A stretch of DNA of 62,206 nucleotides, the filler included, from Hausera hauseri (Eukaryota), in the NCBI GenBank assembly GCA_046269625.1. It is 10 parts of 10 records of this genome, joined end to end, with 100 filler letters (N's around TTAATTAATTAA, not from the genome) between each part and the next. Parts side by side here need not be neighbours in the genome. Positions count along the whole stretch, not along the records: positions 14,519 to 18,868 come from JBJURY010622886.1; 9 more parts are not named here. The stretch is one strand, 5' to 3'. The translations under genes were made by a program, and so were the position numbers. Position 1 is the stretch's first letter, and every line of letters starts with the position of its first letter. The notes below the pieces were generated by a model that did not search any database, was not told where the DNA came from, and worked only from the letters and a program-made list of their open reading frames with translations. Shown here in pieces: positions 990 to 32,644 of this stretch.

Positions 990-1337
990 CCAAAATGGGC
1001 TTGGGAAGCAACTTGCATTGTTTTGTATTCGTCAAAGGAGCTGTTAGCATCAGATCTTCGTTGTTCAGAACTTAGTGCAGATCCTCTTGGGGTTTATACT
1101 TTTGTGCCATATAGGAAGATTTCAACATTTGTAACATTATGATAACTGTTGGATGATTTGTTTAAATAGAAAAAATGATAGAAACGAGAAAAAAACAGTT
1201 TTGAATTTTGAATTTGAAATAAAAAATTTTATTTAATTTTATGTGGGTTATTTTGAACCTACATTGGTGTCAGAAGATTATTTGTCATACTTAGGAATTA
1301 TTTGCTTCGTCATTCGTAAATTATTCGATTCTCAGTT

Positions 1338-4559: not shown

Positions 4560-7500
4560 ATGAAAAATCCACAAATACATGCAACATCTTTCGTTTGCCA
4601 CTCCCAACAATCACGAGCTTCGTTAAATCTGCCTTGTGTGGATATTTTTCTTGATAAAATAACTCCAGCAAACCATGGCTCCAATTCCACCAACAGTGGA
4701 TAAAATCCAACAAAATCACCGACTCCTTTGTGCGTGCCAATAGTCTTTTGATACTTCTGCGTGCCAACATTAAGCAGCAGATCAGTAACATCTCCGAACT
4801 GCTCTAATCATAGACACCATGCGAAACACTGTGAGGCTGTACTCCATATCACCGATCCCTCGATAGATCACATTATACAAAAATACTTTAACGATAATGC
4901 TATAGGAAACCAAAAATTATCCGATTTTCTTCAAACGGCCATTCTGCAGCTTATCACTTTAGGAGTAACACCTACGCATAAGGCGGATTTAATTTGTAGA
5001 TATTTTTGTCATCTTTGCCAACCTCAATCAGAGACTTGCTCACGGTTGTCGACGAGTCCACTGCTATTGAAAAACTAGCCATAATGGCTGACAAGTACTT
5101 TGAAATTCTCCATACAAGTAATTCTCTAAAAATTGCGGCTGCAACCACACATACACCAATTATAAACACCACGTCTTTCGCTCAACAACTGAAAATGATG
5201 AAACAACAATTCAACACGTTTCAGCATTCAATTTCGAAAATTACCACCCAACTAAGCAATCTAAATGGGTCGCGACAAAGTAAAACCAAACCTTCAAGAG
5301 GCGAAGCACTTCAAGACACGCTATTCGATCCATTTCGCCTGGTTGACGTATGACGTGATTCTATCACACGCGATTTCGTAAGGATGCAAGGAAATGCTTT
5401 TCCGGTTGTCGATTCTACAGCGAGCGATACGCGGTGGACAACCCTATTTGCATATACCACAACAAATATCAGTCGCAGGCCAGGTCATGTGTGCCTGGTT
5501 GTAAACACTACAAAGATGAATTTCTTCCTTTTCTTTCCTCTTCTTCCTTTCTCCATATCGTTCAAAAAACTAATAATGCCGCCAGATTTTACGGCACATT
5601 CTGGCGCAGGCAATATTGCTCAATCTTCTAGCCGTTTCAACACCGCTTTTGCAGTCTTTCTGTTAAAAGTTACACTGTTATGCAGAGATATCTCATATCG
5701 AATTCCTAATTGATTCAGGAGCTGTCTTTTCACTCCTTCCTTTGTCCTTCACTCCTATATCCACTATGATTTCCTGTCCCCCGCTCTTCACTGCCAGTGG
5801 GCAACCGTTGCTCGTTGCGGGAAAAACAGAACTGACTTTCACATTCTCCAACTTGCCAGATAAATTTGTCTGGAAGTTCCACGTGGACAATATTAAATCT
5901 CCCATAATAGGCTCATATTTTCTTGCTGAACATGATCTGTTGGTCGATTGCAAATACGGCTGTGTTCTGAGCAGGAACTCGATCGCAATTCCAAACGTAT
6001 GTCTCGCAGACAATCTAGCGAACACCTAAATGTACTCTTCTATAAACATACTGAATACCTCGTCAAATTCTCGTCAAATTCATCAATTTCGAAACAAAAT
6101 TCCAATCCGAATATTAACGATGGCAATGCCGGTTGTTCTTCGTCAATTACTGCAACTGGCTCGTCCGTTGATATGCCTCATTCATTCTTATTTCTAGACT
6201 CCAATCTTAAATCAGTCGTGACAACGTCTTGCTTTCGCATAGTTAAAAGAGACGTCAACTTCAAGCCTCCATCCACAACTTACCACCATATAGTAACAGA
6301 GCATCAGAGGCCTATCAAACAAAAAGGCAGACCCTTGTCGCTACGCAGACACAAAGCTGTGGAACAGGAATACAATGAACTGGAAAAGTCTGGAATCATT
6401 CGGAGATCGAATTCACTTTGGGCTTCTCCTCTTCATATAGTAGTAAAGAAAGATGGTACCTACAGGCCATGTGGCGATTATCGCCAATTAAACAACCTAA
6501 CTATTACAGATGCCTATCCACTACCACTCATTAAGGATATTCTTCATAGTCTTAATAACACCAATACCTACTCTACCATTGATCTGCATAAAGCCTACCA
6601 TCAAATCCCTGTTGCACCTGATGATATTCCAAAAACTGCTGTCATCACACCATCTGGCCTTTATAAATACATCTTCATGCCTTTCGGCTTACGTAGCGTA
6701 TCTCAGACGTTTCAGCACCACATTGACACCGTTCTCTCAGGTCTTGACGTTGCTTATCCATATATAGATGACATATTAGTCTGTTCCACCTCGATCAAAC
6801 AACATCATGAGCATTTAGAATTATTTTCCACAGATTGCATTAAAGCAACCTGCAAATCAATTTCGCCAAATGCAATTTCTTCCAGAAACGCGTCAACGTC
6901 TTAGGCCACATAAGTACTCCCGAAGGTCATTCGCCACAGCCTCATCGCTTATAACAATTAAAAAATGTGTCGTTACCAACTTCCACTACCGATATGAAGA
7001 GTTTCCTAGGGACATTGCATTTCGTACACAAAAACGTGCCATATTGCTACGAACTAACGGAACCTTTTGCGCTCCTCTCATCTGAGAAGAAAAAACAATT
7101 AATCCTTTGGACTCCCGATCTAGTAAATGAATTTGATCGCTTTCGTGAAGGTCTGAAAACCGTTGAAATCTCGACTTTTCCAAAACCAAACACGGAACTA
7201 ATATTAACTACCGATGCCTAAATCACAGCCACTAGTGCGATATTACTCTAAATATACAATGGTGTTGATAAGGCATTAGAATTCTACTCCAGAAAGCTCA
7301 CGCAACCAGCAAGCCGATACTCAACATTCCATCGTGAACTCCTGGCCATAATTCTAGCGGTAAAACATTTTAAGCATTTGCATCTATCACATCAATTTAT
7401 CTTCCAAACCGAGCACAAGCCTCTACTTCATATCATGACGCTGAAACAGCCATCATCCAGACATGAACGACAGATAACATACCTGTCGACATTTAGTTTT

Positions 7501-9217
7501 TCCATGAAATATATTTCAGGAACAAAAATTTAGTATCAGATTTTTTGTCGCGGTCAGCCAACTCAATTACAGTTCAGCCAGTTTTCTCCTCTGAAGTCCT
7601 AAGAAGTAATCAGTCACCACCTGATATTCTCCAAGCTTTTAAATCTGTTGAAATCATCGATGGCATCGCTTATGACATTTCCAACTCGACCAACAAGATC
7701 ATTCTTGCTTTATCGCTACAAAAGACAGCTTTCAATCACTTTCACTCTCTTTATCATCTGGGTTCAAAAGCCCCATTTCGTCTACTGGAACGCCATGTTG
7801 TATGGCCGACTATGCGTACAAATGTACAGGTCTGGGTTAAGGGATGTATAGCATATAAACAATATAAGGTTCAAAACACCTCAAACCACCACTTTACCAC
7901 TTCCCTTGTACGTTTCGTTTTGACACCGTTCATTTGGATCTTGTGGGTTCTTTACCATCCGATAACGGCTATCAATATATCTTATCCATGATGGATTGCC
8001 CTTCTCGCTAGCCGAAAGCCGTTCCTCTTCGATCAACCAACACTGACTCAATAGCAGATGCATTTATCAAAATATGGGTCAGCCGTTTTGGCTCACCACG
8101 TCACATCAAAACAAACCAGGGTCCACAATTTGAAGCTGATCTTTTTAAACCTCTGGTAATGCACTTGGCGATAGTCCATTTACATACGACGCCGTGCCAT
8201 CCCCAAGCAAATGGTCCTCTTAAGAGATTTCACCGAACCATGAAGATTTCCTTAAAAATCTTGTCAAATAACAATCATAACGGGACCTCAATTCTTCCTC
8301 TTGTCCTACTCGATTGGCGCAAAACGCCATCCACCACCACAGGTTGTGCTCCACCTGAGACTCTTTTTGGAACACCAATTTGTGCTTTATTTCAGCTTTT
8401 CAATCTCGATGAAAGTCCATTGGATGAAGTTATTCGTGCGGCACAGTCCCACTTTGTAGATGTGAACTCAAAAGCCTTTGCTATCTTATAAATAAAGACA
8501 AATCTAATATACTCAGCCAAGTTTTTATAGCTGAAGGATTCGTCACCTTCTGATTTTTGGCCTCAGTACGTTGGCCCTTATAAACCACTCAACCTTTCTT
8601 CGCCCACCGGTACTATTTTACGTAATGACAGACCTCAAAATGTACATACCTCTAATCTTAAGCTAGCATTCTTTGTCGAAGATGATCAGTATAACAGCCC
8701 TGTTTCAAATTCTAACTTTAACGTATCTCCTCTCGAGTCATCGTCTAATTTCCTCAATGATTTTGATCCGTCGCAGCAATTACTTTGGCGTCACAATCAG
8801 TTCTCTTCAGTTCCGTCGTCGTCCACTGCTCCCTCACCGCTTACGTCGCCGTCATCGCCTGCACATCCACTACTCATTTCACATTCATCGCACGATTCGC
8901 TTCCATCTACAGTCACGCCTTCTTCGCCTGATCTTTTTCCTTTTTCAGCTTCTTCTCCACTTTCACTTCTTCATGAAGCATCCTCCAAAAACACCACAAA
9001 ATCCACAGAATATCTCCCTCGAACAACTAAACAAGCACCAACAACATATAACAGACCACGCCAAGTAACATTTAGCTCCTACAGTAGGGAGAAGTTCACG
9101 GATGAAATCCAACGTTTGACACGTAAAAAAACCCAATAGGTACAAGTTCTTCTTTTTCTTACAATAATCTACCTCTATTTTTCTTCTTTAGTCTTCATTT
9201 TTGCTACAAGAGGGTGA
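4560..9217 (+). mobile_element. Degenerate Ty3/Gypsy LTR retrotransposon internal region (gag-PR-RT-RH-IN), CsRN1/Mag-like gag
   Basis: Gag LPTSIRDLL..LAIMADK and CIYHNKY..ARSCVPGC knuckle; protease FLIDSGA (~5704); RT WASPLHIVVKKDGTYRPCGDYRQLN and YIDD; RNase H LTTDA; integrase WVSRFG and HPQANG; PPT AAGAGGG before 9218. Many stops and frameshifts. The 5' boundary is approximate. Confidence 0.92.
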
Positions 9218-9290
9218 TGTAGTGCATGAAATGTGGTCGCACTGGCGAGGTTAGCGAACCGGTGAGGAGATTTCTCACTATGCTCATGAT
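9218..9290 (+). repeat. 5' portion of the 3' LTR of the Gypsy element
   Basis: TGTAGTG follows the PPT and resembles 745-800. The right end is not resolved. Confidence 0.65.
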
Positions 9291-10033
9291 AAAAAATCTG
9301 ATTATATTCCGCAGTTATCACACGTTTCTTTAATTCCTAATTTTCAATTTCGTAACTTTGATACACTCAAAGATATCTATTTCTTGATCATTTGCTGATG
9401 ATTTCACGAATTATAATTGGCAAAAACCGGATAAGGGATTGCCACCTTTACTAAAAAAATACAGTCAAAATTTACAGAAGAATACCATGGAGTCGATGCA
9501 TTGTACGTTATACTGACAATTTATATTGGTTGACGATTTTTATTTGATTAAGAAACCAATCTGTTTTATTCGGTTTTTTGAGTTTGTGTTTGGTGTTAGT
9601 TGACTAAATATTTATTCTGATGATATTTCGTTTATGGCGTATTTTTGATTTGTACGAAATTATTTATTATGCACTTCGGACGAATCAACAAACATTTGCT
9701 ATCTAACTATTACTGAGAAAATAATGTCTTATGCTTAATAATTAATTGATAATTGATTTAGTTTTTTTGAAAGTCAAAATAAATTATCGCTATATCTTAT
9801 CTCTTATCGGTTGGATTTATCTTGTCGTTATTTGGAACGACAATCTTCATTTGAACCATCTTCAACTCTTGACTTTTGAACAATTGATAAGATATCATGG
9901 GCTTCATACCTACCATTCTGACCCCATCATCTCCATAAAGATATGTAATATCCAATTGCTCTTTCAGCTTTCTCATGTAATCGATCAGATATTCAGACTT
10001 TCTCTTACAGTTTGGAAAGTCCAGCACCTCATC

Positions 10034-10178: not shown

Positions 10179-10776
10179 TTATTGTGGATGGCCTAAAACG
10201 ATGGATTGGGAATTCGATTCTATCTGAGGATTGCTGTTCCAACCGGAAATATCTTGTTGGCAATAACTGAGGAATTGGCGTGTTAGTAATAGTAAGTAAA
10301 GCTCTTCTAGGGTGGTGGAAGAATATATGAATTGAGGACAAAAATAACAAATGCTACAAATTAGATGTCGATGATGGCATTCCAGTTGGTAACAATGGGA
10401 GCAGTATTCGGCATTACAGCAACTAAGGTGGTAGGCTATTTTATTAGGCTTATGACAAAGACAACGTGTGTGGAGTTGGAAGTATGGGGTGCAAAAATGT
10501 TTTGATACATTCCAGGTATAGTAGTATGTAACGTGGTCAGTGGGTTTGATAAGTTCAAAGGTTCTAGCACCAAGTAGTGATTGATCAGCGTCTGATGGAA
10601 ATGCGTTATGCTGGATGCAATATACAATTTCATATTTACAGATTGGGCAATAAGGTGTAGGATTGGCTTGTGATCGGGCTCGATCTATACAATACAAGCA
10701 AAGCATGTACAGATATGGTGTTAATCTGTACACTACACTGAGGATTACTCTGCACTCCATACATTCTGGAAGATCT
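10179..10776 (-). CDS. Protein with two RING-like Cys-rich zinc fingers
   Basis: ECMECR..LTP(Y)LYMLCLYC..CPICK and CLCHK..LSCCNAEYCSHC..CSIC. Possible splice acceptor TTTTCAG just upstream. Confidence 0.6.
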
Positions 10777-11007
10777 GAAAATAAGTGGAATTAATTAAGG
10801 TTTAATTCAATTGTATTAAGATCTATACAATTATCAGTGTCTTCGATATACAATGGGTTCGATAGGTATTGATACAATTGTCTAAGTAGATGGGGTTGTA
10901 ATAATGGTGAACTATATGTAGGGATGATGGTGGTATGTAGTAATTGCTCACTTAAACGAATTATGAGTACCGGGTTTGTCGAGAAATTTGCATCGATAGA
11001 ATGGCGA

Positions 11008-12082: not shown

Positions 12083-13950
12083 TTACACCAGAATTTCACG
12101 ATGCATAATATCTAATAAGCATTCGCGTTCGAAGGAGCTAACCATAGGATAACGTATCAGAATGTCATTAATTGTCAGGTTTCGATAATCGTGAGTTTCC
12201 GGGCGAATATCACGTCGTCGCATCAGGATGGAGACTGTCCTATAGGTTCGAGTCAAAAGTGCGGTTACTAGGGAGTCTCTTCATACGAATCATGAGCGTA
12301 GTTTACGTCAAATAGGTAAGTTCCGTTATCGAATTTCTTATTCAGAAAGGTTTCCAACAAGAGGAATCGTTTGAATACTATTGTATGATGTAATGGCGTA
12401 CTACGTAATTGTAGTTGGAAAATTGCTTGAAATACCTTATTGTCGTAGGCATAATCAAATATTAGGATTGCAAGATTATGTCGATTGTGCCGGATAGCGA
12501 GTAATAAGGGAATGTCTCCGTCGACGTTAGGTATGTGTAATTGTTCTTGTGACTGAATGAACATGAATATGAAGAAATCATGGCATTCACTCATAATGGC
12601 TAAGTGAATGATGGTATTGCTATTTGTATCTTGGAATTTTAACGCTTCCGCTGCTTCATCGCCTAATTGATATATAACTTCTCTAGCTCTTTCGTCCGTA
12701 CACCCCAACATGTATCGTTCCGCTTTTGGTAGAATTTGTTCCTCATGGCTTTTGACGTAAGGGTAATATTCTTCTTTGATAGTCGATAACCATTTTTCAT
12801 CATCATAAATTTTAAATTTATATTCCAAATTAGTTAAAGGAATTTCCAATTGTCTATTGTAATCAAGTATTGGTCTATGACGGGATATATCTCTTCTCCC
12901 GTGCTTGTTTATATACGCATATAACGATAATTGTTATTATAAGTATGACGCCAATGGGTACTACTATTACTATTAGCAGGAATATATTATAATTTATTTG
13001 GAATTGTTGTATTGGTTCAACTGATGATGGTATGATGCTCAACGTTTCATTATCTTTAGGAGAACTGGTATATATTCTAAAAATAAATTTTCCTCTTTTC
13101 ATTATTTCATTGAGTGTAGGAAATTTGAACAATGAATGTACTCCTTTCTTGAGTGTAGTGACTTCCAATAACGCGACTGTTTTTGGTTTTCGTAATGGAT
13201 CATAATGAGGTAACTGAATATGGGCTAAATAAGGATAACCTGATATTAATTGAGCACACTCGACGTATGTACTGGTAACTAGGAAACAGGCGTCATTTGC
13301 ATTTTCCAATGTGACGATAGTCAGGATTTGGTAAACTGAATATTACACGATCGGATTTCACTTGAAGGTAAATGTCCAGTGTTTTGAAGGGAATTATTTT
13401 AATTTGTTCTGGTGTTTGTCTTAACTCTGCTATTAGATAAGGAATTTGGTTATGAACCGAGTAGTAAAATCTATTTAGCCAAAAGGTATTTGGGCAGGAT
13501 GATTGTAATTGTAGTGTAAGGAGTATTTGTCGATTGTCGTGTTTTGTTTATGATACTGGAGGTCGAGGACTTGTGACTTCCAAAGTATACACTTCACTGT
13601 AGCGTTTTGCAGCACATGATAGGGCATAATGGGCTCTACTGATTTGTGGTGCAACCACTAGAATTTCATTCTCGTTAAATATTTGTGCTTTGATCCGTTT
13701 ATTATATTCAATAGAGGGGATGCATGGAATTATTGATGTCTTTCTTTCAATTCCAGTTGCTGTGCATCGCCATATACCATTTACAATACGAAACAGCGAA
13801 TATTAATGTATATTCCTGATCAGGTCGTGCAAAAATGCAGGTTGATTGATTATGTTCTCTGGAATAATGGATGTTATCACCGATGGTTACATCAGCATAT
13901 TGAGTGGTTATTTGCATTATTCTGCTTTTTGATATTTTTCTAACAATAGA
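12083..13950 (-). pseudogene. Type-I membrane protein with cytoplasmic ankyrin repeats (Notch-like topology), frameshifted
   Basis: TM IFLLIVIVVPIGVILIITIIVICVYK, then by frameshift near 12885 ankyrin repeats (NTIIHLAI, GDIPLLLAIRHN, STPLHHTI, ETPL), ending EILV* at 12083. The 5' end is approximate. Confidence 0.7.
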
Positions 13951-14518: not shown

Positions 14519-15469
14519 TCCAGTCCAATCCGTTGGAATGTCATGGATGGAGTGGAGAATAAGGGGGTTTTGTCCGTGAGAGAGAGCGAATGAAGTTTTC
14601 CCAATATTAGCGGCCCCGAAAATGACGGCCGAATTTACCCCTAGTTCTGGTTCAAATCGAATAGGGGGCAAGAGAAATTCCTGATTGACCGGTTGATACT
14701 TTTCCCGGAACTTATTGCGCACGTATGATGTTAGCAGACGATGTCGAGTTATAAACTCAGATCTGTCGCATTCCTTCATCGTCTGGAGGGCCTCCTCAAC
14801 TGTCGGCGCCTCGTCGAACAGCTTATAGATGACCTTCTTGGAGGTATTTTCCCTCCAGACGTTAAATGGCTCCTTGCCAAATGCAGCGATAAGTGCACCA
14901 TCGAAGGTGTCCTTATGGTGAAATTGATACACCTAAAAAAATAATAATATTAATAAGCACACACACATACCTTCTGGATATCGGCGCGAAATGGAAGGAC
15001 GTGTGCTACAAGCACATTCCACATCGTAGATATCTTGTTGGGAGTCGGCGTATAAATGAGGACGTGCATGTGGTGAAAACCACTAGGTGCACGCTCCTCT
15101 TGAAGGCGAATATACCAGTGCTTTTTTAAATAGAGGCGCTGGTATTGGTCCAATCGGTACTCCGCATTAAACTGCTCGTCCAATTTATGGACTAACATAA
15201 AATGCCGGAACGTAGAATTTCTAGGGGGCATAGCAAGTGTTTTGACTGGTTCAGGGAATTTACTTTGGAGGGCCTCAAAAACCTCCGGAGGGAACTGATC
15301 CTCCTTAAACAGAGGCATGGGGTTCTCAGCATTAACAGTAATGTTTCGTTTGTATGATGTTCTACCGAAAAAAAATTAAACATCGAATAAAAATAAAATA
15401 AACCTACTCCGCGTTAGCTTTCACGGCGGGGGTTAATTTAATAACCCGATGCAAATTAAATTCATCCAT
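14519..15469 (-). CDS. rep: Spliced CRESS-like Rep, copy A (HUH endonuclease + SF3-helicase-like P-loop); exons 15469-15408, 15361-14971, 14932-contig end; 3' partial
   Basis: Motif II QEERAPSGFHHMHVLI and Walker A GAANIGKT. Motif III region VYQFHHKD. GT-AG introns of 46 and 38 nt give one continuous frame starting MDEFNLHRV. Confidence 0.88.
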
Positions 15470-16158
15470 TTTCAATAAATATATATTTAAAAGTTAAATA
15501 AAATTATGAGCCAGATTATAATATATATTTGAAATTGAGCTGGCTCAATTTTAAATAAGATTTTAACGGGGCACAAAAAATTCAAATTGATTCAACCAAT
15601 TACGCACACCAACAAGCGAACGGTTGATAATAACGTTACTAAGCAACCCGAGATAATGCACTAATTCACTGGCGCCTACAATATTGATTTATGTTATCGG
15701 CCGATACATATTAACAATGCGCGGAAAGTCAAGTGGCACTTGACTACCGCTGTAATTACCCGATGCTACTCGGACATTACATGCACCGGGTTTCCTTCAT
15801 ACAATGGACTGCCCGAGACACAATTAATACCGCACTTCAACACTACTAATGTAAATGGCCGAGACCCTATACGGCCGGTCTCGATACACTTAATATAGCC
15901 TTAAATCTGGTTAACATTAAAGTTCAAATATAGTCAGTTAGCTCAAAATAAAAATGAGCCAAATATTTAAATATCATTTATTTTATTATTATTTATTTAA
16001 TATTTTTAATTTATTTTATTATAATTATTATTATTATAATTCATATTTTTATTCTTATAATTTTTTTTTAAAACTTAAATTTTTTTCATTATTTTTTTTT
16101 TTTTAAAACTCTTAAATTTTTTTTAAGTTACTAAATTTATTGTTTATGTTCATTTTAG
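15470..16158. promoter_or_regulatory. Bidirectional control/origin-like region, copy A
   Basis: Palindromes at 15532-15551 and 15727-15745, plus a 28-mer at 15854-15881. All have collinear counterparts in copy B. Confidence 0.65.
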
Positions 16159-16629
16159 ATGGCTAACCAATCATATGCAGCAGCACTACTGAACTGGTAC
16201 AACCTTTTAGCAAAGAAAAGAATTGATGAGGACCTAAAACTTTATCGCAAATAATTTGAAAGGGTTCAAAACTTGGCTCATTCTTTTAATAGAATAATCG
16301 AGGAATCGATATTGAGAAATTGGGACGACACAGAAGCTCGGACCCGCCTGGACATGGCCCGGACTTCTTTGATAAATTGTGCTGAAGTCCGGGATAGGAT
16401 CCGGGAATATCTTAGACAATTGGAAGCTATGGAAGGCCAATGGGTCTTACCCTTCGATGGTGCGACCTATGCAGCTGACTCACCAGCACCCTTCTACGAG
16501 GCTTGGAAGGACCTCGACACACCTGCTCAGGTGAAATGGATCCGAGAAACCGAAGAAGACCTGAAGAACATGGCCAACATTGTGGATCATAACCTTTGGC
16601 CAAGGGTCGAAAACCTTTTTATCTTGTAG
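16159..16629 (+). CDS. Unknown ~156-aa Rep-partner protein (ORF X, copy A) with one internal TAA where copy B has Glu
   Basis: MANQSYAAALLNWYNLLAKKRIDEDLKLYRK*FERVQNL...ENLFIL is homologous to 17066-17293. TTTTAG lies directly before the ATG. Confidence 0.75.
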
Positions 16630-16736
16630 CTTGTTATATAATAAATTGATGTCTTGACTTTAGGTCTAAAGATGCCAACGGAGGTCCAAAGCCCTCGTGT
16701 AAATCTGATGGGACCTTTAACTTTATATTTAAAAAA

Positions 16737-16789
16737 AAAAGTAATTTGCTTTTAAGAGTCAAACGACTCTTAAAATCATTATTACTTTT
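16737..16789. repeat. Interrupted inverted repeat / hairpin downstream of ORF X
   Basis: AAAAGTAAT-n4-TTTTAAGAGTC-aaac-GACTCTTAAAA-n5-ATTACTTTT. Confidence 0.8.
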
Positions 16790-17065
16790 CTGATTTACTC
16801 AGAAATAAATCTGATATATTTTCAGAAATACTACTGAATACTACTGAAATACTACTGAACATATAGATTTCCCATCTTAACTACATTTCACGTACAAATT
16901 ACATATATTGCCTATACTTCTCCTAAATTACCTCCATATTACCCATATGCTACCATTATATTTTCCTATATTACTTATATATTCCCCACAATGTCTATAT
17001 ATTCCTCTCATCTTTCGCGAAAGAAAAATATTAGATGTATGCTGAATTGTAATATACCAGCTAAA

Positions 17066-17293
17066 CTATCTCAAGCAGAAGGTATCAAGCAGAGCCATTT
17101 CCATCCGGATCCTTGCCTGGGGGTCGTCCCAGTTCCGAAGAATACTCTCTTCAATAATTCCTCGGAAGCTGTTACCAAGGTTGGTGACCCTGTCAAGTTC
17201 TCGACGATACAACTTCAAATCCTCCTCAATACGTCTTTGGGCTAGAAGGTTATACCAGTTCAAAAGCGCACGAGCATAATTTCGGTTGGCCAT
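17066..17293 (-). pseudogene. ORF X copy B, 3'-truncated (homology lost near 17093)
   Basis: MANRNYARALLNWYNLLAQRRIEEDLKLYRRELDRVTNL..IIEESILRNWDD. Confidence 0.75.
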
Positions 17294-17912
17294 TATTTCT
17301 AAAATGAAAATAGAAATTAATTAGAGCCGCGAAAAAAATTTAAAAGTTATAAGGAAATAAAATAATAAAAGTAAAAGTTAAAAAATAATAAGTATAAAAA
17401 AATTAATGTAAAAAAATAAATAAAATAATAATAATAAATTAAAATATAAATTGAATTTAGGCCCGAAAATATTTTGAGCCACGTTGCAAATTTATTTCTT
17501 GCAGTTAACGCATTTTGAGCCAATATATTCATTGATTAGACCGGCCGTATAGGGTCTCGGCCATTGCATTGTCAATGTAAAGTCCGGTACACATGAAACC
17601 CGAGATAAGTAGTCTAATGTCAGCCGTCGCTCAAGTGCCACTTGACACGCTGACAATTAATTACACGTAGTGCCCGAGAGCAATTATCGATTAGCTGGTA
17701 GTTGCTAACTCTCGTGATTGTGTGCGTTGCTAGGCAACGTTAAAATCAGCCAAAATAATTTCAATGCGCATACCGACACACACACGGCTGATTCAAAATG
17801 TTATTTTTCTACCCAGACTTATTTATATAATTTTGAGCTAGCTCAATTTCAAATATAAGTTATAGCTAGACTCAATATTTTATTTGAAATTAAAAATATA
17901 AATTAAAGCGAA
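17294..17912. promoter_or_regulatory. Bidirectional control/origin-like region, copy B
   Basis: 28-mer at 17538-17565 (exact reverse complement of copy A); palindromes at 17631-17645 and 17833-17846. Confidence 0.65.
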
Positions 17913-18868
17913 ATGGAAGAAAATCATCTTGAAAGAACTGTGGTTTTACCCCCCCCCCAATGTTAAAACACACTTCTGAGTGAGATTTTGATTTAAATAT
18001 TTTATGAATATTTTTATTTTGCAGAACATCATACAAACGTAATGTTTTAATTGGTCCTGGATTAGAAACTCCATTGTTTAAAGAGGATCAATTCCCTCCG
18101 GAGGTTTTTGAGGCCCTCCAAAGTAAATTCACTGAACCGGTGAAATCTCTTGCCATGCCCCCTAGAAATTTTACCTTTCGTCATTTTATGCTTGTTCATA
18201 AGTTGGATCCTACTTATGATGCTGAATACAGATTGGATCAATATCAGCGCCTCTATATAAAAAAGCATTGGTATATTCGCCTTCAGGAGGAGCGTGCACC
18301 TAGTGGTTTTCACCACATGCACGTCCTCATCTATACTCCTACTCCAAACAAGATATCTACAATGTGGAATGTGCTTGGTGCACATGTTTTACCGTTTCGA
18401 GCGGATATCCAGAAGGTATGTGTGTGTGTGCTTAATATTATTATTATTTTTTAGGTGTATCAATATCACCATAAGGATACGTTCGATGAGGCAATTATTG
18501 CAGCTTTTGGCAAAGAGCCATTTAATGTCTGGAGGGAAAATACCTCAAAGAAGGTTATTTACAAGCTGTTCGATGAGGCGCCGACAGCTGAGGAGGCCCT
18601 TCAGACTATGAAAGAGTGCGACAGGTCTGAATTTATTACGAGACATCGTCTTCTTACTTCGTATGTGCGAAACAAGTTTCGGGAGAAGTACCAGCCTGTT
18701 AATCAAGAGTTTCTCTTATCTCCTATCAGATTTGAGCCAGAACTAGGCGTTAATTCAGCTGTAATTTTTGGAGCGGCCAATATTGGCAAAACTTCATTTG
18801 CCCTTTCTCATGGACGGAATCCACTTATTCTCCACTCAATCCATGACATTCCAACAGATTGGACAGGC
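17913..18868 (+). CDS. rep: Spliced CRESS-like Rep, copy B; exons 17913-17979, 18025-18415, 18455-contig end; 3' partial
   Basis: HHMHVLI, VYQYHHKD (YxxK) and GAANIGKT. Introns of 45 and 39 nt at the same positions as copy A. Exon 1 is out of frame by one base at the C10 run (17949-17958). Confidence 0.88.
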
Positions 18869-18968: not shown

Positions 18969-19522
18969 GAGGAAGTTTAATTTCTCACTTTGAGGTGTGA
19001 GAAATTATAAAATAGCAGGGACATTGGGGACATCTGGACTCTTTACAGGGGACAAAGGTGTTTGCGCTTGACCTGGTCAACCAATTGGAGGGACTTTTTA
19101 ACTTCAAACCTCTGCAGCGGCTGTCTCTCATTGGATGAACAAAGAGACGCCTTGTTTGCTTCTGATTGGTTGTAAAATGGATACGCCTGATTTGAAAATG
19201 GCTTAAAAACTGTCCCACGCCGAAATAATTTAGATTTTACAGATCTCATGGTTGTAATTTCTCCAGAGACATCTTTTGTCTCTGTTTCTTTTTCTGTCTT
19301 TTATTTCTTTCGGTCCCAGAGGTAAATATGTATTGTTTCTATCCTGTATTAAAAAGTTATCGTTCTGTGATGTCATCATGTTGTGCCGGTTTTTGTTTGA
19401 GCATGCGCTCTTCACGTGCGTCTCCACGGGCACCGAGAGAACTCCGGGGACAGAAGGAAGATAGAGCTAAAGTTTAAACAAGCTAACAAGTTTGAACAAG
19501 TTCTGATCTTTTATTCTCAACA
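18969..19522 (+). mobile_element. 5' LTR (partial) of an ERV-like element
   Basis: CCAAT/ATTGG boxes, ATTAAA near 19348, and an ...AACA end followed by a tRNA-Pro-type PBS. Confidence 0.65.
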
Positions 19523-19524
19523 TT

Positions 19525-19544
19525 TGGGGGCTCTCGTCCGGGTC
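19525..19544 (+). promoter_or_regulatory. tRNA-Pro primer-binding site
   Basis: TGGGGGCTCTCGTCCGGG versus canonical TGGGGGCTCGTCCGGGAT (2-nt insertion). Confidence 0.7.
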
Positions 19545-22500
19545 TCTCGGTGGATGCCGGTGGAGATTGACTGATTCTCTCGGCCTGGTGCCGCTGTTTC
19601 TCAGGTGAGACAACTCTTTGTTGTTTCTTTTGCTGGTAGCATGTAGCTTTGGCTGTGGCTATTAGCTTAGCGGTGCGGACATGTGGGATTACAGATCGAC
19701 AGCAGATCCTGCGGTGAGATTTCCCCCTAAAAGAGTCGTAATTAAATTGATTAATAAATACACAGTAAATTGTAAATGTTTATACTGGGAGCTGTAGCGG
19801 GCTCTTACCGAAAGTGTTGCGCAGCTTCGGGGAATTAGCTGGGTTTGTGTATACAGTGGGTACTAGACTCGCTTAATATTTAAGTGAATATTGTCTTTAA
19901 GTATCTGTTGTATAGCGTTCGTTGCCCTGGATAGCCTCCAGTCTACCTCAAATACGAACTTATTTTGGCTTCTGTGTATTATTCGGTTTGGGTTTGCATC
20001 GCCCAGGAAAGTTCGGCTAATTTCCAAAGGAATTATGATTGAGTGGGTTATTTGATCAGTGGTCGCTTCATGTTTACTTATGTTTTAAGACGGCCGGTAA
20101 ATTTCTTAATTTGACACAGGTTCGGTCACCTTTGTATACTCTGAGTTTAAGGATATTGTTTGAAGACGCTGGCGAAATTTTTTAGAGTTTGACCCCGCTC
20201 TATAGTTTTTGATTGGAATCTCTTACTGCAGTGATCTTTTAGCGGCCGCTTCTGACTTTTTACCTGGGACCGTTAATCTATCCTATCTTCTTCTTGCCTT
20301 TAACCTCTATTGTGTGAGGCTTGGGGACCATTTGTCTGTTTGTGAGGAGCTCCGTGTTTGTGTGTCCATATTTGTGTGATTTGTATATTGGAAGCGCTCT
20401 GTCTGTCTCTGTGTGCGCGCTGCTGTGGAGCGCTACGTTTGTGTTTATTTCTATGTGTTTGTGATAAACTGTGTGTCTGTGTCCACTTTTCTGATATGTG
20501 TTTGCTTGTCTTGTGGAAGTTGTATTGCTGAATTAATGCTAACGCTTTGTCTGTCTGAGCTCGTGTTTTCAGGGGACATGCTTCCTGGTTCCCTCTTGGC
20601 TGAGGTAACGACTGGAAAAGGGGGGCGGACCAGGGGAGACTGTGGTTTTTCTGTTTCCATTTTTAGGAGTTCTTTTCATGCTGTATTCACTAATATATTT
20701 TTTTCCCAGGTTTGTTGGATTGGTTTATTTGGTGTCTTTTGAAATGTGGGTTTTCTGTGGAATGACAAGTGCAGAATGACTGATTTACTGATGTTTCTGT
20801 TTTCTGCAGGGGTGAGACAATGTCTCATCATCTTCTGGTTTTAGGTTGGATGGTGCAGTGGGATAAAATTGTTTAATCTGTGACGTGTGAGTTCTTTTAA
20901 TTCATACTTTTTCTCATTTAGGATGACATTTCCTCACTGCCTGGACAAAGGAAAACACTAATGCATAAATTTGTTTTTTTTTGTTTCTCCATGTTGATGT
21001 GTTCTGTGTGTACAAAGATGTTAATTTGACTTAGGACTGTATTTTTCTGTGTCGACTGGGGTGACATTTCTTTGACTCTGACTTGACTGTGTGAATGTGG
21101 ATCGCTGTGTTTTTTTTTAATTTTTTTTTACTTTTTGTTAAGCGATCTGGCTTATATGTGACGTCATTTGATACTTGTCTGTTTGATTTTTCTTTTATGA
21201 TTTCTAGGAATAGTGCATTTTTTATTATTTCATGGATTCACTCTGACTGTCTTTTGCAGACAGGCTGTCCCAGTCTGATTTACATTTTCTTTGGAGCTGT
21301 TTTAGACTGCTGGGTTCTCAGACCGGCCCGATTGTTCCATTTCTTTCATTTTATTTTTTTAACTTTACTAACACACTAACTTCTAACTGCACTAACTGTT
21401 ATTTAGTAAAAGTCACAAATGTTTATTTTAATTGGACATGGAAAATTTTAGCATATTGGGGAATTGGATTTTACTTTATTATTTTGGCTTGGTGGGAGTG
21501 ACTTGTGTTTCTTTTATCAGAACAAATATACGGGGGGATATTATGAAGACACATTACTTAAACAACTTTATAGTTTACAACTTTTGATATTGTTTTGAAT
21601 TTGGTTTATTTTAGTTTTCACTGCATTATTTTTTACAGTTTCTGTGGGTTCCAAATCATTAGTTGATTTTCAGACGGGTATGTCGAGGAACACACACTTC
21701 ATTGTACATTTTGCAGGATGGAGGGGGTGCCCAACTTGGATAGGAATGCATCTTGTCTTTGTGCTTCGTGAGGGTGTTCTGGGTAGTTTCCAGTTTCTTA
21801 GATGAGATGGGTTAACTGATTTTTTACTCCTCCTGCAGGCTTATCTAGATTCCAAATACGAAGGAAAAAGATGTATAGTTTAGCTAGGGCAAAGATCATT
21901 GCTTTCTCATGGCAGGGCACATCTGCGTTTTCTCCTGGTCCTTTTCCTCTGGACATTTTGGGCAGGTTTACGGTGCGGGGGTTGTTTACAACCTGGGCCT
22001 TGTCAGCAGATCTCCGTTTCTGATCTGTCCCTGGATTGACCTGTTGGTTGAGGGCACAGTTCAACTTTGGATATCTCTGGGTTGGCTGGTGCAGCCTTCT
22101 CTGCCAAGGGGAAACAACATTATCCACGCTTTTATCTGATTTAAGGTTCAGGTATTCACTAAGGTACCTCTTGCTTGGGTTTTATTTGGTAATCATTTAT
22201 TTTGATTTTTGTTTGGTTATTCTTGTGTACTTTTTTATTTACTTGCTCTAGCAGGTAATGCTTGATAAGACTTCCTGCTTTTATTTTTATTGTTTTTCAT
22301 TATGTTCACTACAGTGTTTTGAGAAATTGGGTTAAATCTACTGTTAAGTTTGGATTACATCTGAGCCATTTATGACCTCTTGGTGTGTTGTTGAAGTTAT
22401 TTGAAGGTGTCAGAAAACAACACCAATGATTTTATTTTACCATTACTGTGTTACGGCCTGTGGTAATTACTGGGACGTTCTGTTAGATAACATTGTATTC

Positions 22501-23530
22501 CTGTTTATTTGTGTGTTTTTATTTTTTGTTTTTCTCTTTTCTGGAGTGCAGAACTTGGAGCGGTTTCTCATGCTGTGACATGGCAGATGTGATGAGGGAT
22601 GCTTCACAGGATGCAGGAACATTTCTTATTACAGTTGTAATTTACACAATATGACATATGATTTTGTTTGTGTTTGATAATTTTGTGTTATTTTTTCTTT
22701 TGGCAGTATTTCCCCTCTGTGCATTGATGGTGATCTCTCTGGGTGGACTGGTTGGACTCTGGTGACATGTTCTGAGGTGTGCTGTTCGGTGATGTCTTGG
22801 TTTACACACCATCCTGTTCCTATCACATCTTGTTTTTCTTCTGCTGTGCTGCTATATGAGAGCCGACCGTTATCCAACGGCACTAAGGTCAGTGAAGATG
22901 TCTCGTGTGATATCGGCCAGAATGCTGATCGCAGGTTGCTGCATCAGGTGCCGACTTGGACTGTTTGGAGACAAAGGGACCGGGTGTCGTCTCTCAGTGT
23001 GAGTCCTCCTGCAGCTGCGCTCTGCAGGGTGTTGGGACTGCGAAAGATCACAGCCTTCTGTCCTGCGTGAGACGGGGGTTTGAGTGAATGACTGACACCA
23101 GTTTGAAGACAACAAAGGGCTGACCTTAGTTCGTCACAGCAGTTTGCCTGGGACTCCGCGCTGGTGGTGGGTGTGTATTGCCAAGATGGATCCTGATTTG
23201 CCACCACTGATCATGTGGCCTGAGCAGCTGAGTTCACATCAGAGTCCATAAATGCACAGATTGGTTCTGATGCCACTCGATTTGGTGATAGTTAATGGTT
23301 TTTCTAGGTTTTGCATTATTTCATGCCATTTTTTTTTCTTTCCTTGATGTTTTAAATATGCGTGGTTCGTTCCTCTGTTTGTATCCTGTGCTTTGTCCTC
23401 GGAGGTGTTGAAACATCTGGTCTCAGGCCCTTTTAGATGCTAATTGAGGACTGGTGCGATCTTTCCCATCCCGCTCTGTGTTTTTTGGGGTAGTGGTTTT
23501 TAGATTTTATTTGGCTTTGTCTTAGATTGG
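19545..23530 (+). mobile_element. Non-coding, T-rich internal region of a non-autonomous ERV-like element
   Basis: Follows the PBS and is strongly T/G skewed. No gag or pol motifs seen. Confidence 0.45.
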
Positions 23531-28799: not shown

Positions 28800-30940
28800 A
28801 TCAGAAAAGACACACTAAATTGTCCGTAAGCAACACTTTTGTCTTTATGAGTCCAATGCTGTTTTTGGAGTAAATGGTTTGTAGCGGATGGTTTTTTGTC
28901 TTAATTCGTTCGTGGGTAACTGTTGTACCATATCCGTTTTCATGCGATCTGGAATAATATTCAAACTGTAAATTGGTCTGTTTTAGATTAATCCCTTTGT
29001 ATTTGAAGACTGGTCTGTTCCGTGTTTTCAGAGTGTTTGATTTCGACCGTAAAAAATCTCTTTATACTCAACACAAACCTTACATTTAAATTTCCCAATA
29101 ACAGCTGAGCATCGAGATCAATACAGTGGATCACTCACATCATAGTTGGAAGTGTCCAACTATTCGTTAACTATCATTACCGGTAAAAGTTGTTATCGTA
29201 AATCAACACCATGGCACTCAAGAAAAAGGCAGTTTAACTGTTGCCTGCATGTCTCTAATTAGATATAGTTCAACTGATACATCCGTAACTTTGACAAATC
29301 AAGTACTGCCTGACCGATGTACGAGGGCCTATCTAAAGTAACCGTGTCTTTATCAAAGAGAACAGCAACTATGTCATCAGTTATAATAATGCTTTCCTTA
29401 AACTGCGTCTTGCTGGTATATGTAATAAGCTTCTTAGAATTATTACGTAGTTTCAAGTTGGACCTTTTAGGCGATTTCTACTGTTTTACTATATAAGTTA
29501 TTGCTTTTCTGCTTAAAGAAATCTTTCTCAAAAGGATTATTCGTCGCCGCCATTTTAGCAGTATTTAAATCGATGTAATTCTTAAACACATAACCCTGGT
29601 CAAATTCAACAGCCCTATGAACTTTTTCAACAAGAGCACCTAATTCAGTGCAAAACTGCAACACCCGATAGTGGAACACATAGTTGGTTTTATGCTCATT
29701 TGTCAACAACAATTTCTTAACTCTTGACCCAGGAGGACTTTGATTATCCAAAGCTCGCTTTTCCTTAACAGTGTCAAGATAATGCAACTGCTCCGTCGGA
29801 CTGTTTAAAGTATTTTCATTGTAAATGCATATTAAATTCCCAAATGGCAAAGGTTGTGATAAAGCCTAGCTGTACAAATTATTTACATTTATATACAAGG
29901 GACTGGTGCTTTCATCGGTAGTAACTCTATGCTTATTTTCAAAAGCCATGCAACCGCGAATACCCACTTGAAAGAAAGTGCACATTTCGGGACCTTGTAT
30001 AAGTTCAATCCTACAAGAAATTGATTTCAATGCTGTTGCCATAGATAAACCGGGAATTGAAACAAAGTTAACAGCCTCTAAACCATACTGCAACTTAACC
30101 TCTTTCCTAAATCGTTCAAAAATATCTCCTAACAAGTATACATCGAGTTTCATGTATACCAACATATAATAAAAAAGACTGTTACACCTATACCTCGAGC
30201 AAGCAAGTTGTGCTTCCTCATAATCACCATCATTAATATCATCCCATTTAGGTGGTAACTGACAAATAGACTGCAAATCACTAAACGATTTGGCTGCAGT
30301 ATATGAAAAATGCTTTTTCCCTTAATGATGTCAGAAGGAAAAGCTGATTATGTAAATGAATAACTGTCTAAATTCGAAGCTAAAGCCTTCAAAGAAGCCG
30401 GTAAGAACTGAAAGGAGTCCAGGAATCGAATAAAAATAGATTTCTAAGTGAACAGAGACTCATTGACTGCATAGTTAAAAAGTTTTCCGTTGTTTGAGGA
30501 ATTAGACTTAATTCCCAACTATGAAATTTACTTAAGGTCTATTTTAAGATATGATAAAGATCATATCCACACAAATTATGAAAAATAACAGGCAAATTAT
30601 GCCTAATCTAGAGTGCCAAGTTATATTTACTACAAGCTGGGACCAACACAAACTATAATCATTCTGTACGTTTTTAATGACCGTTGCATTTTTTAGTAAC
30701 AGGTGTTGGCAGATATGACTTTTCGGACAAATAAGATAATGGGTTTTTGACTGTGAAAACCTACTTCAAAATCTTAACAAATTTGAATCCATTACCAATT
30801 TCAACGGAATTTTCAATTTGCTCTTGCAAATTATCAGCAACAGATTGATGATAAGGAACAGCTCGGTGAGAAATATGTCTCTTTAATGTCACACTCAGCA
30901 TTCTCAGTTTAAAAACTGTACTGAACTTTACATGATGAAA
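28800..30940 (-). pseudogene. Protein-primed family-B DNA polymerase of a Polinton/Maverick/adintovirus-like element, degenerate
   Basis: IFHNLCGYD, RFLDSFQF, LDVYLLGDIFERFR, YINVNNLYS, FEKDFFK..NNLYSKTVE, YIGQAVLDLSKLRMY, LDTSNY. Boundaries approximate. Confidence 0.9.
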
Positions 30941-30955
30941 ATCAAGTGTACAAAT

Positions 30956-32644
30956 CTAAAGTTCCAGAATATCCATAATTGGTCGTTCTGTGTATAGTTG
31001 CTTGGTAGTTCTTATTGTTAATCCCTGGTGTTTCGTGGCAAGTGGAATCTCGTCCGGAGTGAGAATAAATTCGGTCGTGTTAAGTTCATCAATTGGACTA
31101 ATTTTAATATACATTTGGCGACAAATCAATTTCTGTCGTTTTTGGTTATTCGTTGACATTTTCGTTTCCGTCAGAAATTTGAATAAATCTTCGTCTGTAA
31201 ATTTATCCGGTTCCTGATGATAAAAATGGTTAACATGATTTAGTATAGTACCCATGTTCTGATAAGTGGAGATAAAAAGATGAGGGTATTACGTTAATGT
31301 CTTCGGATAAAGAGCGAGATGCCGATTGAATTGCAGCAGTTTCGAATGGCTGTTTTTTGACATTTGTTTTTGAATATTTAACTGATATTCTCGAATTGAA
31401 TGTTCAGTTATCAATGCTATTCTACGATTGATATTCATTTGGAGTCCTGCTCGTATTGGACAGAACCTTTTGAAATTCACTTGCGAATATACCGAATGGC
31501 ATTAGATACCAGGCCAAAATTTTGCAACTCCATTCAAAATGAGTCTTCAGCTTTCCTTGATGCATTTCATCTTTCATGTACAAATCAGCCACTTCGTTTA
31601 CATCTCCCTGTTGGAGAAACTTTACAATCCAAATAATTGTTGCTTGAGTCAACCTTTCTGAATAAAGAATCTGGAGTGTTTCGTCTAGCGTTTTATATTT
31701 TGAGTTATGATTTAAATCAAAGTAAAAGTTTTCAGAGATTTTTTTCCGGTTTTTCAGGTCATATAAACATACATTTCCAAATATCATCACCAAATCCGGT
31801 TCTGATCTCAGAGATTTCACGCTAACTTTGATTTATTTTCCTACTATTTCTGTTGGGAGATCAATGCCCGGTATTCGTTCAAATAATTTCTCTATTCTTT
31901 GGTTAATGTATATATTGAACAATTTGGTTTGACGAGCTTTCTGACGAAGTTTCAAATTTTGTTGCTCCTCCGTTTTTAGAACGAGGACATTTAACAAACC
32001 TGTAAGTAATGGATCATAGTCGATTTTATACAAACATTGATAGTTCGAATGACTAATATAGCCGTCGGCGGTCGATAAATATTCTAACTCTTGATCAATT
32101 TCGTATATTGGGACATCAACGATGTCGACATCATCTGGGAAATTATTATACCTTTCATACCTTGACTTAATAACGTTGAAATCCTTTGAATACGATTCAA
32201 TAAATCTGTCAAGGACAGGATTTTTCAGCTCGGAATTTTCAACATTCGACATTTTAACTGTTCTTGTTGGACGTGAATTTGTATATAACACAAGATTACC
32301 GCATGGCACTGAAAAATTGTCTGCTGTGGTATCAGTGGACTTTTTACCCGAATTATATTCTTCAATGAAGTTATTTTCTTCATTAACGTGGTAATCCAAA
32401 ACAAGCGTTTCGCTACTTTTAATATCAGCTTTCTTGACATTTGGTGTTGAATTCCTTTGTTTTGTATCTTGTCGCCAGAATTTACTGGTGAATTTTTTTG
32501 ATAAGATTTTAAATTTGATACAGATCCAATGTAGGCGGTACAATTGTGAAAAATCCATGTAAAATCTGAATAAAATGTTTCTGAAGAACAATAATCGCTA
32601 TCTATTGGTTCATGAACAGACATTGATTTGAAAGGTTCGTTCAT
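30956..32644 (-). pseudogene. Run of broken unknown ORFs upstream of pPolB (element accessory genes / terminal-protein region)
   Basis: Co-oriented 63-252 aa frames, tightly packed. No family recognised. Confidence 0.45.

Follow-up and report, generated by a model that had tools for sequence, protein, structure and literature searches.

Two decayed, inverted units that pair a two-intron CRESS-type Rep with a predicted helical non-capsid gene: plausible copies of a capsid-less rolling-circle element

Where geminiviruses splice their Rep, the gene carries one intron, which lies after the nuclease domain, and alphasatellites possess a single Rep gene of the nanovirus type. The passages of the literature on which we draw describe, for geminiviruses and alphasatellites, spliced Rep transcripts and Rep-encoding molecules without a capsid (PMC13696870, PMC6186406), and capsid-less plasmids with a CRESS-derived HUH plus SF3 Rep are described there from the red algae Pyropia and Porphyra pulchra (PMC6668415, PMC4814812). 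Endogenous CRESS Reps occur in multiple, often decayed copies in eukaryote (animal and fungal) genomes, for which a spread by their own Rep has been proposed, and a truffle element has its own transposases and terminal inverted repeats (PMC3198968). Replitrons are eukaryotic multi-copy elements with a Y1 HUH nuclease that is related to CRESS Reps; they have no helicase and mostly show HUQ as motif II and GYxxK as motif III, Replitron-1 has two introns, and Helitrons possess a Y2 nuclease fused to an SF1B helicase (PMC10288648). In case of HthCRESSV1 (proposed ‘Mitodnaviridae’), a Repensiviricetes-type Rep is combined with a helical non-jelly-roll second protein of 363 aa with five transmembrane segments; this mitochondrial system is unisense, and the passages concerned mention no intron (PMC13499601). 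Precedents exist for spliced Reps, for capsid-less CRESS-type eukaryotic replicons, for an HUH gene with two introns and for a helical protein in the place of a capsid.

The locus described here is a new combination of such ingredients in a deep lineage, which does not yet make it a new class. It was found in a window (the whole stretch of DNA that was analysed, 62,206 nt) of ten unrelated contigs joined by N-linkers, in which it constitutes one entire contig of 4,350 bases (14519-18868); the adjoining contigs are unrelated to it. Two inverted units, A and B, are present, each consisting of a Rep gene, a control region and a divergent ORF X. A sequence-only reading had recognized them as diverged mirror-image copies, and they are indeed real inverted homologs, with 79.9% identity over 1,054 nt (Rep and the upstream part) and 70.6% over 282 nt (the start of ORF X and upstream). 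Both contig ends are cut inside Rep and stop at the same homologous base. Between the units lies a strong hairpin (16737-16790; z -5.15 and -7.99, 0/200 shuffles) with a perfect 11-bp core (16750-16775), which is a candidate element end, followed by three adjoining tandem repeats of 10-11 nt (16825-16859) and by a unique spacer (16860-17092) that contains no Rep piece and matches nothing in the rest of the window. The contig shows neither host flanks nor a target duplication, and no end of the element was recognized on it; an Rfam search of the whole window gave 0 matches. A 128-codon ORF (16859-17242) is likely spurious, as it has no family match above the cut-off and overlaps ORF X in antisense.

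In unit A, Rep is encoded on the minus strand. Exon 1 (15408-15469) is in frame with exon 2 (14971-15361), which codes for an N-terminal extension, a motif I-like stretch and motif II, and exon 3 (14519-14932), which is cut by the contig end, contains a motif III site without tyrosine, the oligomerisation region and Walker A. With intron 1 (15362-15407, 46 nt, GTAGGT..TAG) and intron 2 (14933-14970, 38 nt, GTATGT..TAG) removed, the predicted Rep has 289 codons and no stop. In unit B, on the plus strand, exon 1 (17913-17979) is followed by intron 1 (17980-18024, 45 nt, GTGAGA..CAG), exon 2 (18025-18415), intron 2 (18416-18454, 39 nt, GTATGT..TAG), which is positioned three codons ahead of the motif III tyrosine, and exon 3 (18455-18868), again cut by the contig end, with YHHK, the oligomerisation region and Walker A. 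Two introns per Rep had been claimed, and all four are found with GT..AG ends; they appear to be of the spliceosomal type and would be removed by splicing. The motifs HHMHVLI, YHHK (only in unit B) and GAANIGKT are likewise present as claimed.

Over its full length, the spliced Rep can be aligned with Reps of unclassified CRESS viruses (E 8.5e-16). Against a profile of 88 CRESS-type Reps, the spliced exons 2 and 3 reach 51.6 bits, compared to 41.6 bits with intron 2 kept and at most 3.3 bits in 200 shuffles; as the profile Reps were fished by a pattern from the query's own Walker A region, the Walker A part of this match is favoured. Motif II (HMH) and, in unit B, motif III (QYHHK, with a single tyrosine) match the profile at the spacing that is right for a Y1 HUH nuclease after splicing, and motif I matches by position only. 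Exon 2 alone leads to Cressdnaviricota Rep clusters in Atlas (0.93, 187 shared features), and the match to Pfam Gemini_AL1 lies below the cut-off (E 0.02). Walker A is collinear up to profile position 215 of about 310, and the contig stops ahead of Walker B; as had been stated earlier, Walker B and motif C would be located outside the contig, and no C-terminal Rep piece occurs elsewhere in the window. Among the reference Reps with the Walker A pattern, the Walker B pattern is found in 74/74 and the motif C pattern in 59/74. Rep is a putative SF3 helicase that would carry both of these motifs. The dN/dS ratio between the units is 0.14 for exon 2 and 0.014 for exon 3.

From the Rep ATG to the ORF X ATG, the control region measures 689 nt in unit A (15470-16158) and 619 nt in unit B (17294-17912), in agreement with the estimated 620-690 bp. 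The collinearity of its motifs, also noted in the first reading, is beyond chance: a block of 28 nt is identical in both units (15854-15881 in A, 17538-17565 in B), as compared to a longest exact word of 12 in 300 shuffles, and this block is a candidate Rep-binding or nick site. TGAGC(C/T) occurs in five copies in unit A and four in unit B (shuffle means 0.14 and 0.22; 0/300 shuffles reach either number). A palindrome (15532-15551) located 63 nt upstream of the unit A Rep ATG is kept in unit B (17833-17846), and so is a hairpin around TCAAGTGGCACTTGA, a candidate origin (15721-15750, z -3.79, 1/200 shuffles as good, in unit A; 17618-17655, z -3.37, in unit B). The conserved hairpins carry loops of 3-4 nt, and among the hairpins of the contig no canonical nonanucleotide was seen at an apex; the sole match to NANTATTAC (16777) is part of a stem arm, and AT-rich DNA would be expected to contain such a match by chance. 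A TAACGTT stretch near 15631 was rejected as origin (z -0.09 to -0.54).

ORF X comprises 156 codons in unit A (16159-16629, plus strand), with a premature stop at 16252-16254, and 75 codons in unit B (17066-17293, minus strand), of which the first 67 are 70% identical to unit A and the rest is unrelated. Directly before its start, a putative acceptor-like TTCATTTTAG follows a T-rich tract (16149-16158, plus strand), and unit B has the same 10-mer. An AATAAA 11 nt past the stop (16640-16645, plus strand) is likely the polyadenylation signal, after which there is a hairpin and no capsid gene. Silent changes between the units are far above replacements (pN 0.22 versus pS 0.89), which argues that ORF X is a real gene. 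Two predicted models are all-helical, one of them with five helices and no strand (pLDDT 68, core 75-83); there is no membrane segment (top 19-residue hydropathy 0.4), and the G+P+S+T content is 0.12, compared to 0.25-0.35 in the longest non-Rep ORF of 13 CRESS loci. No homolog was found in Pfam, PHROGs or PDB sequences, nor for residues 33-156 among proteins of near length, and a search of viral folds with a partial model gave nothing at E 0.001. Atlas matches to unnamed or dynein coiled-coil clusters were rejected for low recognition. A reassigned stop codon as explanation of the ORF X stop was also rejected, since in neither unit do the 268 Rep codons include TAA or TAG. On these models and this composition, the claim that ORF X is not capsid-like is upheld: it is predicted not to be a jelly-roll capsid, and the contig contains no other ORF for one. 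The proposed pairing of Rep and ORF X is seen in both units, and linkage was observed in these two only.

The sequence-only reading had missed four lesions. In unit A, the motif III site has no tyrosine and ORF X is stopped at codon 32; in unit B, a C-run (17949-17958) takes exon 1 out of frame, and the homology of ORF X is lost after codon 67. Both units are decayed, and therefore this contig is not itself a working replicon. One public sequencing run (X1), possibly the source sample of the contig, contains both units and at least four more diverged variants, with 42 contigs on 1,442 nt, of which 22 are below 90% alike, and third codon positions hold 30 of the 40 differences listed. At the motif III codon, the contigs that differ from unit A number eight and account for 244.7 of 250.3 depth; the lesion is thus nearly private to this unit. 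The piece that matches unit A has one difference and a depth of 17.4, and the one that matches unit B has 55 differences from unit A (unit B itself has 56) and a depth of 16.8; both stop 30 bases past the contig ends. Other variants reach depths of 110-142, contig depth in this run not being equivalent to copy number. None of the pieces listed spans both units, in a comparison that covered the Rep side. Many diverged variants would be equally compatible with an ordinary virus that infected repeatedly. A second run (X2, share 0.05) was rejected as evidence, its match being confined to the low-complexity intron 2.

As to a place in Gemini-, Genomo- or Geplanaviridae or in CRESSV6, a tree of 79 Reps without family names shows the two units as a long branch with a stem of 2.2 changes per column and an unstarred sister. 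No relative was detected in 2.9 million viral contigs searched with exon 3, exon 2, ORF X and the control block, in metagenome contigs searched with exon 2, in longer proteins searched with exon 3, or in prokaryote genomes, PDB sequences, and phage and plasmid records (including exon 3 against the plasmid collection), and an exact sequence look-up matched 0/5. Three matches to the Walker A pattern in metagenome contigs were judged to be chance, as was the one match of exon 2 among 1.84 billion representatives, a repetitive tape-measure-like protein. Literature searches revealed no CRESS DNA replication-associated protein with two introns, no eukaryotic rolling-circle transposon with HUH and SF3 helicase (from 2023 on), and neither the feature combination nor the lineage; the supplements of PMC3198968 and PMC6668415 may list closer sequences.

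How does the locus relate to the described systems? A nuclease of the geminivirus type is found in unclassified CRESS-DNA viruses (loci L005 and L013, proteins P0002-P0089), which share the ambisense layout and a collinear order of motif II, motif III, oligomerisation region and Walker A region, but the best BLASTP matches show just 23-33% identity over long alignments, and only the contig Rep has two introns, an N-terminal extension and no capsid. Geminiviruses likewise splice Rep, while in the units there are two introns, one of them just ahead of the catalytic tyrosine. With alphasatellites, the units have in common a Rep molecule without capsid, but they carry a second conserved gene, and the nuclease leans to Gemini_AL1. 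As judged from the descriptions in the passages cited above, the red-algal plasmids are similar as capsid-less eukaryotic Rep replicons, but these are known as free plasmids with a CRESSV6-derived Rep, and both units here are broken (PMC6668415, PMC4814812). Replitrons resemble the units in the Y1 HUH nuclease and, in case of Replitron-1, the two introns, whereas here an HUH motif, Walker A and a second gene are present (PMC10288648); a Walker A region that matches CRESS helicases follows the nuclease, and HMH and QYHHK replace HUQ and GYxxK. The short direct terminal repeats and target duplications of Replitrons pertain to element ends, which lie outside this contig. From Helitrons, the locus also differs in that motif III has a single tyrosine and the P-loop region is of the CRESS type. 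Endogenous CRESS Reps and geminivirus-like repeats are similarly multi-copy and decayed, but the word intron is absent from the main text, and the passages used mention no conserved non-capsid partner (PMC3198968). HthCRESSV1 and its proposed family share the Repensiviricetes-type Rep, the helical second ORF, a non-canonical hairpin sequence and related endogenous copies (PMC13499601); in contrast, the locus has introns of nuclear type, genes that diverge and a protein of 156 aa that lacks a membrane segment, and shows nothing that is unisense, mitochondrial or five-transmembrane. The earlier claim of a misfit to the named classes has some support insofar as no placement was obtained in the families that could be tested, but each ingredient has a precedent.

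In our view, a diverse family of units with Rep and ORF X is represented on the contig by two members, both damaged and in inverted orientation, with about an even chance that they are chromosomal copies of a rolling-circle element that derives from CRESS viruses and has no capsid. Four lesions that overlie a long history of purifying selection are what one would expect if inserted copies decay. Where a member is intact, both introns would be excised by the host spliceosome, and the product would combine a Y1 HUH nuclease, an oligomerisation region and a predicted SF3 helicase. The repeats and palindromes of the bidirectional control region would serve as binding sites for Rep, which may nick at or near the conserved hairpin, host polymerases would copy out a circle, and this circle would persist or reinsert. 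ORF X may be a small soluble helical protein for maintenance or control rather than packaging, and retention of intron 2 would yield a short Rep without catalytic tyrosine, a possible repressor. The previously suggested nucleus-adapted plasmid, transposon or satellite-like replicon is compatible with the CRESS-type HUH Rep with P-loop, the two introns and the conserved non-capsid partner, but both units are decayed.

Which other explanations have to be considered? The units could be endogenous relics of a true CRESS virus with Rep and ORF X as one genome part, the capsid being encoded by another segment, a lost part or, in case of a satellite, a helper virus, unless ORF X builds a non-jelly-roll particle; the copies would then result from repeated infection and not from self-movement. 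The ambisense layout with its bidirectional control region is a CRESS layout, the nearest Reps found sit on viral contigs of 2-3.6 kb with long capsid-like ORFs, and strong selection together with deep divergence fits a viral population. Moreover, up to about 60 independent Rep insertions within single arthropod genomes are given in the passages used of PMC3198968, and CRESS viruses and relics are reported from parasitic flatworms (PMC10269781). We nevertheless consider a virus relic unlikely, albeit worth serious attention, since the contig has no capsid ORF, ORF X is closed by a polyadenylation signal and a hairpin, and the 2.9 million viral contigs contain no relative.

It is less probable still that the units belong to a free nuclear plasmid, i.e. 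one circular or hairpin molecule with two Rep units that complement each other and have the same 3' arm in common, in the form of an inverted repeat. A lesion in each Rep and each ORF X would be hard to keep on an autonomous plasmid. Such a layout can be likened to that of the red-algal Rep plasmids or of the planarian element PEVE. The common end point of both contig ends would be in line with it, as would the two pieces of near-equal depth that end 30 bases further on as if they entered shared sequence, but any repeat family is expected to have shared sequence, and other variants are present at much higher depths; capsid-less CRESS-type plasmids do exist in red algae, as far as described in the passages used (PMC6668415, PMC4814812). 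Finally, the mirror arrangement might be an assembly or amplification chimera of two family members, with the single unit alone being biological. The assembly represents a mixed sample, ORF X of unit B breaks off near the junction, and no listed piece bridges the units in a run comparison restricted to sequence outside the junction. However, the sequence at the junction is unique, not a shared repeat, and carries a hairpin and repeats of its own, and both units occur at near-equal depth, which makes a chimera highly improbable.

If the chromosomal-copy reading is extended, the family might represent a third eukaryotic group of HUH transposons beside Helitrons and Replitrons: a former CRESS virus that dropped its capsid, kept SF3, acquired introns of host size together with a helical accessory gene, and spreads by rolling circle in an animal nucleus, possibly that of a parasitic flatworm, with intron 2 as a switch between active and nicking-dead Rep. 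This is a speculative extension that we hold to be rather doubtful. The transitions of Rep elements from virus to plasmid and from virus to transposon have been argued mostly from trees, and a capsid-less, helicase-bearing and intron-adapted family with many selected variants in one sample would, if true, be a living intermediate, with a new accessory protein and with nick sites that can be put to the test. Even as a mere relic of an unknown virus, the locus would still mark a deep CRESS lineage in which Rep has two introns and its partner is not of the jelly-roll type, and would point to its host.

The finding is confined to one entire contig (14519-18868) among the ten N-linked contigs of the window. 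Two units, A and its mirror copy B, make up this quasi-palindromic contig, each with an outward-facing Rep gene, an inward-facing gene, ORF X (156 codons at 16159..16629, plus strand, in unit A; 75 codons at 17066..17293, minus strand, in unit B), and a control region between them. The mirrored double unit had been proposed by the sequence-only reading, and BLASTN bears it out, the Rep sides being 79.9% identical over 1,054 nt and the ORF X sides 70.6% over 282 nt; the control regions, then estimated at about 620-690 bp, measure 689 and 619 nt. The neighbours in the window are retrotransposon, host-gene and virus-like pieces, in which family and BLASTN comparison found no homology to this contig, and they therefore provide no context.

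Among these neighbours, 1-10033 holds a decayed Ty3/gypsy pol (RT, integrase) adjoining a peptidase M49 gene fragment (1447-1971). The contig at 10134-14418 looks like a fragment of an undescribed DNA virus, with co-oriented, apparently intronless minus-strand ORFs that include an ankyrin-repeat protein (12271-12933, minus strand; Pfam Ank_2, E 8e-5), a Cys/His-rich RING-like protein without Pfam match (10182-10790, minus strand) and others without match. At 18969-23530, a retrovirus-like leader with an LTR-like start and no long ORF contains a primer-binding-site-like stretch at 19525, which we take to resemble that for tRNA-Pro. DOCK gene fragments at 29470-32597 adjoin broken ORFs that lack Pfam matches and presumably resemble a Polinton-type DNA polymerase. 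The direct repeats at 34554-35224 and 39510-40181 lie about 4.96 kb apart and are 80-93% alike. They and an array at 40464-41293, made up of short, diverged repeats, are possibly LTRs of a decayed element.

Both Rep genes are interrupted at the same two sites by AT-rich GT-AG introns (46 and 38 nt in unit A, 45 and 39 nt in unit B), and in silico splicing of unit A yields 289 stop-free codons, in agreement with the two-intron Rep claimed earlier. Unspliced intron 2 causes a frameshift in unit A and carries a stop at its end in unit B. Its retention would terminate the protein ahead of the catalytic tyrosine and may have a regulatory role. As intron 2 is identical at 35/40 columns, compared with 32/49 for intron 1 and 51/99 four-fold Rep sites, it is either constrained or lately converted. 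The introns would point to a nuclear eukaryote host with short introns. The intron modes of a monogenean flatworm, about 32 and 58 nt (PMC4040987), are compatible with this and not diagnostic; of two further sources, one reports CRESS viruses in parasitic flatworms (PMC10269781) and the other only cites a planarian element (PMC9241645).

Rep exon 2 by itself matches Pfam Gemini_AL1 weakly (E 0.02, under cut-off), and its five best sets in Atlas are Cressdnaviricota Rep clusters (0.91-0.93, at low recognition). Exon 3 aligns to all nine CRESS-like loci that were retrieved with a pattern drawn from the query's own Walker A region (E 6e-7 to 6e-5 within that small set). Among these loci is L005, whose nuclease is of geminivirus type; it yielded 88 relatives, and against the profile built from these, spliced exons 2+3 score 51.6 bits in unit B (E 8.5e-16) and 44.8 bits in unit A, the intron-2-retaining form 41.6, exon 3 37.0, exon 2 6.0, and 200 shuffles at most 3.3 bits, the Walker A share being inflated by the choice of references via the query's own motif. 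The unbroken alignment runs from motif II through motif III and the oligomerisation region to Walker A, and with intron 2 removed the spacing ahead of motif III is that of the reference Reps. The contig stops just short of Walker B; since the 74 of 88 references with the Walker A pattern have the Walker B pattern in 74/74 and the motif C pattern in 59/74 cases, the predicted helicase class is likely SF3. A quick tree was built from 81 rows (both units and 79 references without any named family; 236/718 columns; proteins below 260 aa and every second member of one close cluster omitted). It places the units on a stem measuring 2.21 changes per column, and their sister is unstarred. Small CRESS genomes that pair a geminivirus-type nuclease with a helicase region of non-geminivirus type form a sizeable group without a name, represented by the loci L005, L013 and L018-L020 and the reference Reps P0002-P0089; only 1/88 of these proteins is named.

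Sequence and family searches found no match for ORF X, and no membrane segment was found in it. AlphaFold models, which lean toward helices when alignments are shallow, are purely helical for residues 33-156 alone (pLDDT 56.5) and for the full frame, with X at the stop and unit B as second row (five helices, pLDDT 68.2, pTM 0.52). The composition agrees with these models: G+P+S+T is 0.12 and D+E 0.17, whereas in 13 CRESS loci the longest ORFs other than Rep have 0.25-0.35 and 0.05-0.10, respectively. Models and composition uphold the earlier view of a non-capsid gene: ORF X is no jelly-roll capsid.

In both control regions, a palindrome lies about 65 nt from the Rep start; a hairpin follows at about 260 nt (z -3.79 and -3.37), and beyond it comes an identical 28-nt block (longest shared word in shuffles, 12). 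This confirms the collinear motifs noticed before. The outer hairpin stems differ in sequence between the units and keep their pairing in both. TGAGC(C/T) occurs in 5 and 4 copies near both gene starts, numbers reached in 0/300 shuffles each, and these repeats may be iteron-like. No canonical nonanucleotide was found at a hairpin apex on the contig. The conserved hairpin (15727-15745, 17631-17646) includes TGGCA, the first five letters, in a different register, of the putative nonanucleotide of HthCRESSV1, a mitochondrial CRESS virus; the hairpin presumably is also a dyad of an NK-2 homeobox site. Both likenesses are probably due to chance. Past unit A ORF X, an AATAAA is followed by a strong hairpin (z -5.15, -7.99) and three tandem 10-11-mers, plausibly an element end or second origin. 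A T-rich tract and an identical acceptor-like 10-mer, a predicted 5' intron or trans-splice site, precede both ORF X starts; no consensus donor was found upstream.

Between the units, exon 2 of Rep has a dN/dS of 0.14 and exon 3 one of 0.014, and ORF X has pN 0.22 and pS 0.89 (65 codons). Purifying selection thus acted on both genes for a long time. Superimposed on this are four lesions: unit A lacks the motif III tyrosine and its ORF X is interrupted by a stop at codon 32, and in unit B, Rep exon 1 goes out of frame at a C-run and ORF X homology is gone beyond codon 67. The frameshift is possibly a sequencing slip, and an internal ATG after the C-run could possibly give a shorter Rep product.

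Two sequencing runs matched, of which X1, containing 0.60 of the sampled words, may be the sample behind the assembly itself. Across 14519-15960, the span compared, X1 has 42 contigs (6 at >=99% identity, 8 at 95-99, 6 at 90-95 and 22 below 90). Among the 8 pieces listed, one equals unit A with 1 difference (depth 17.4), and a second (depth 16.8) is most likely unit B, as it has 55 differences from A where B has 56. The remaining pieces, whose depths range from 6.5 to 141.9, represent further variants, at least four being distinct by difference count and depth, which is a single figure per contig and not a copy number. Third codon positions take 30/40 of the differences listed, with 157 further differences beyond those. 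The pieces of A and B both end 30 bases past the window's contig ends, and both ends of the contig fall at one homologous base; ends that coincide in this way typically arise where an assembly branches into shared sequence. None of the listed pieces bridges both units.

How are the units best explained? The reading we favor, at about even chances, takes them for integrated copies, now decaying, of a rolling-circle element that descends from CRESS viruses and lacks a capsid. Precedents exist for spliced Reps (PMC6186406; PMC13696870), for capsid-less plasmids, in red algae (PMC6668415; PMC4814812), for a helical protein in place of a capsid (PMC13499601), for a two-intron HUH transposase (PMC10288648) and for endogenous multi-copy Reps (PMC3198968). 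The relic of a virus, or a satellite, whose capsid is located elsewhere seems rather doubtful to us. Still less probable is a free inverted-repeat plasmid, against which the lesions in both units speak. A chimera is quite improbable.

The favored capsid-less element differs from Cressdnaviricota with respect to the capsid, and its Rep from those of Replitrons and Helitrons in helicase and motifs. Each part was known before, and no report of their combination was found in the literature searched, where most subscription papers were outside reach. By analogy, the units would work like a CRESS replicon, in which ORF X may serve maintenance or control.
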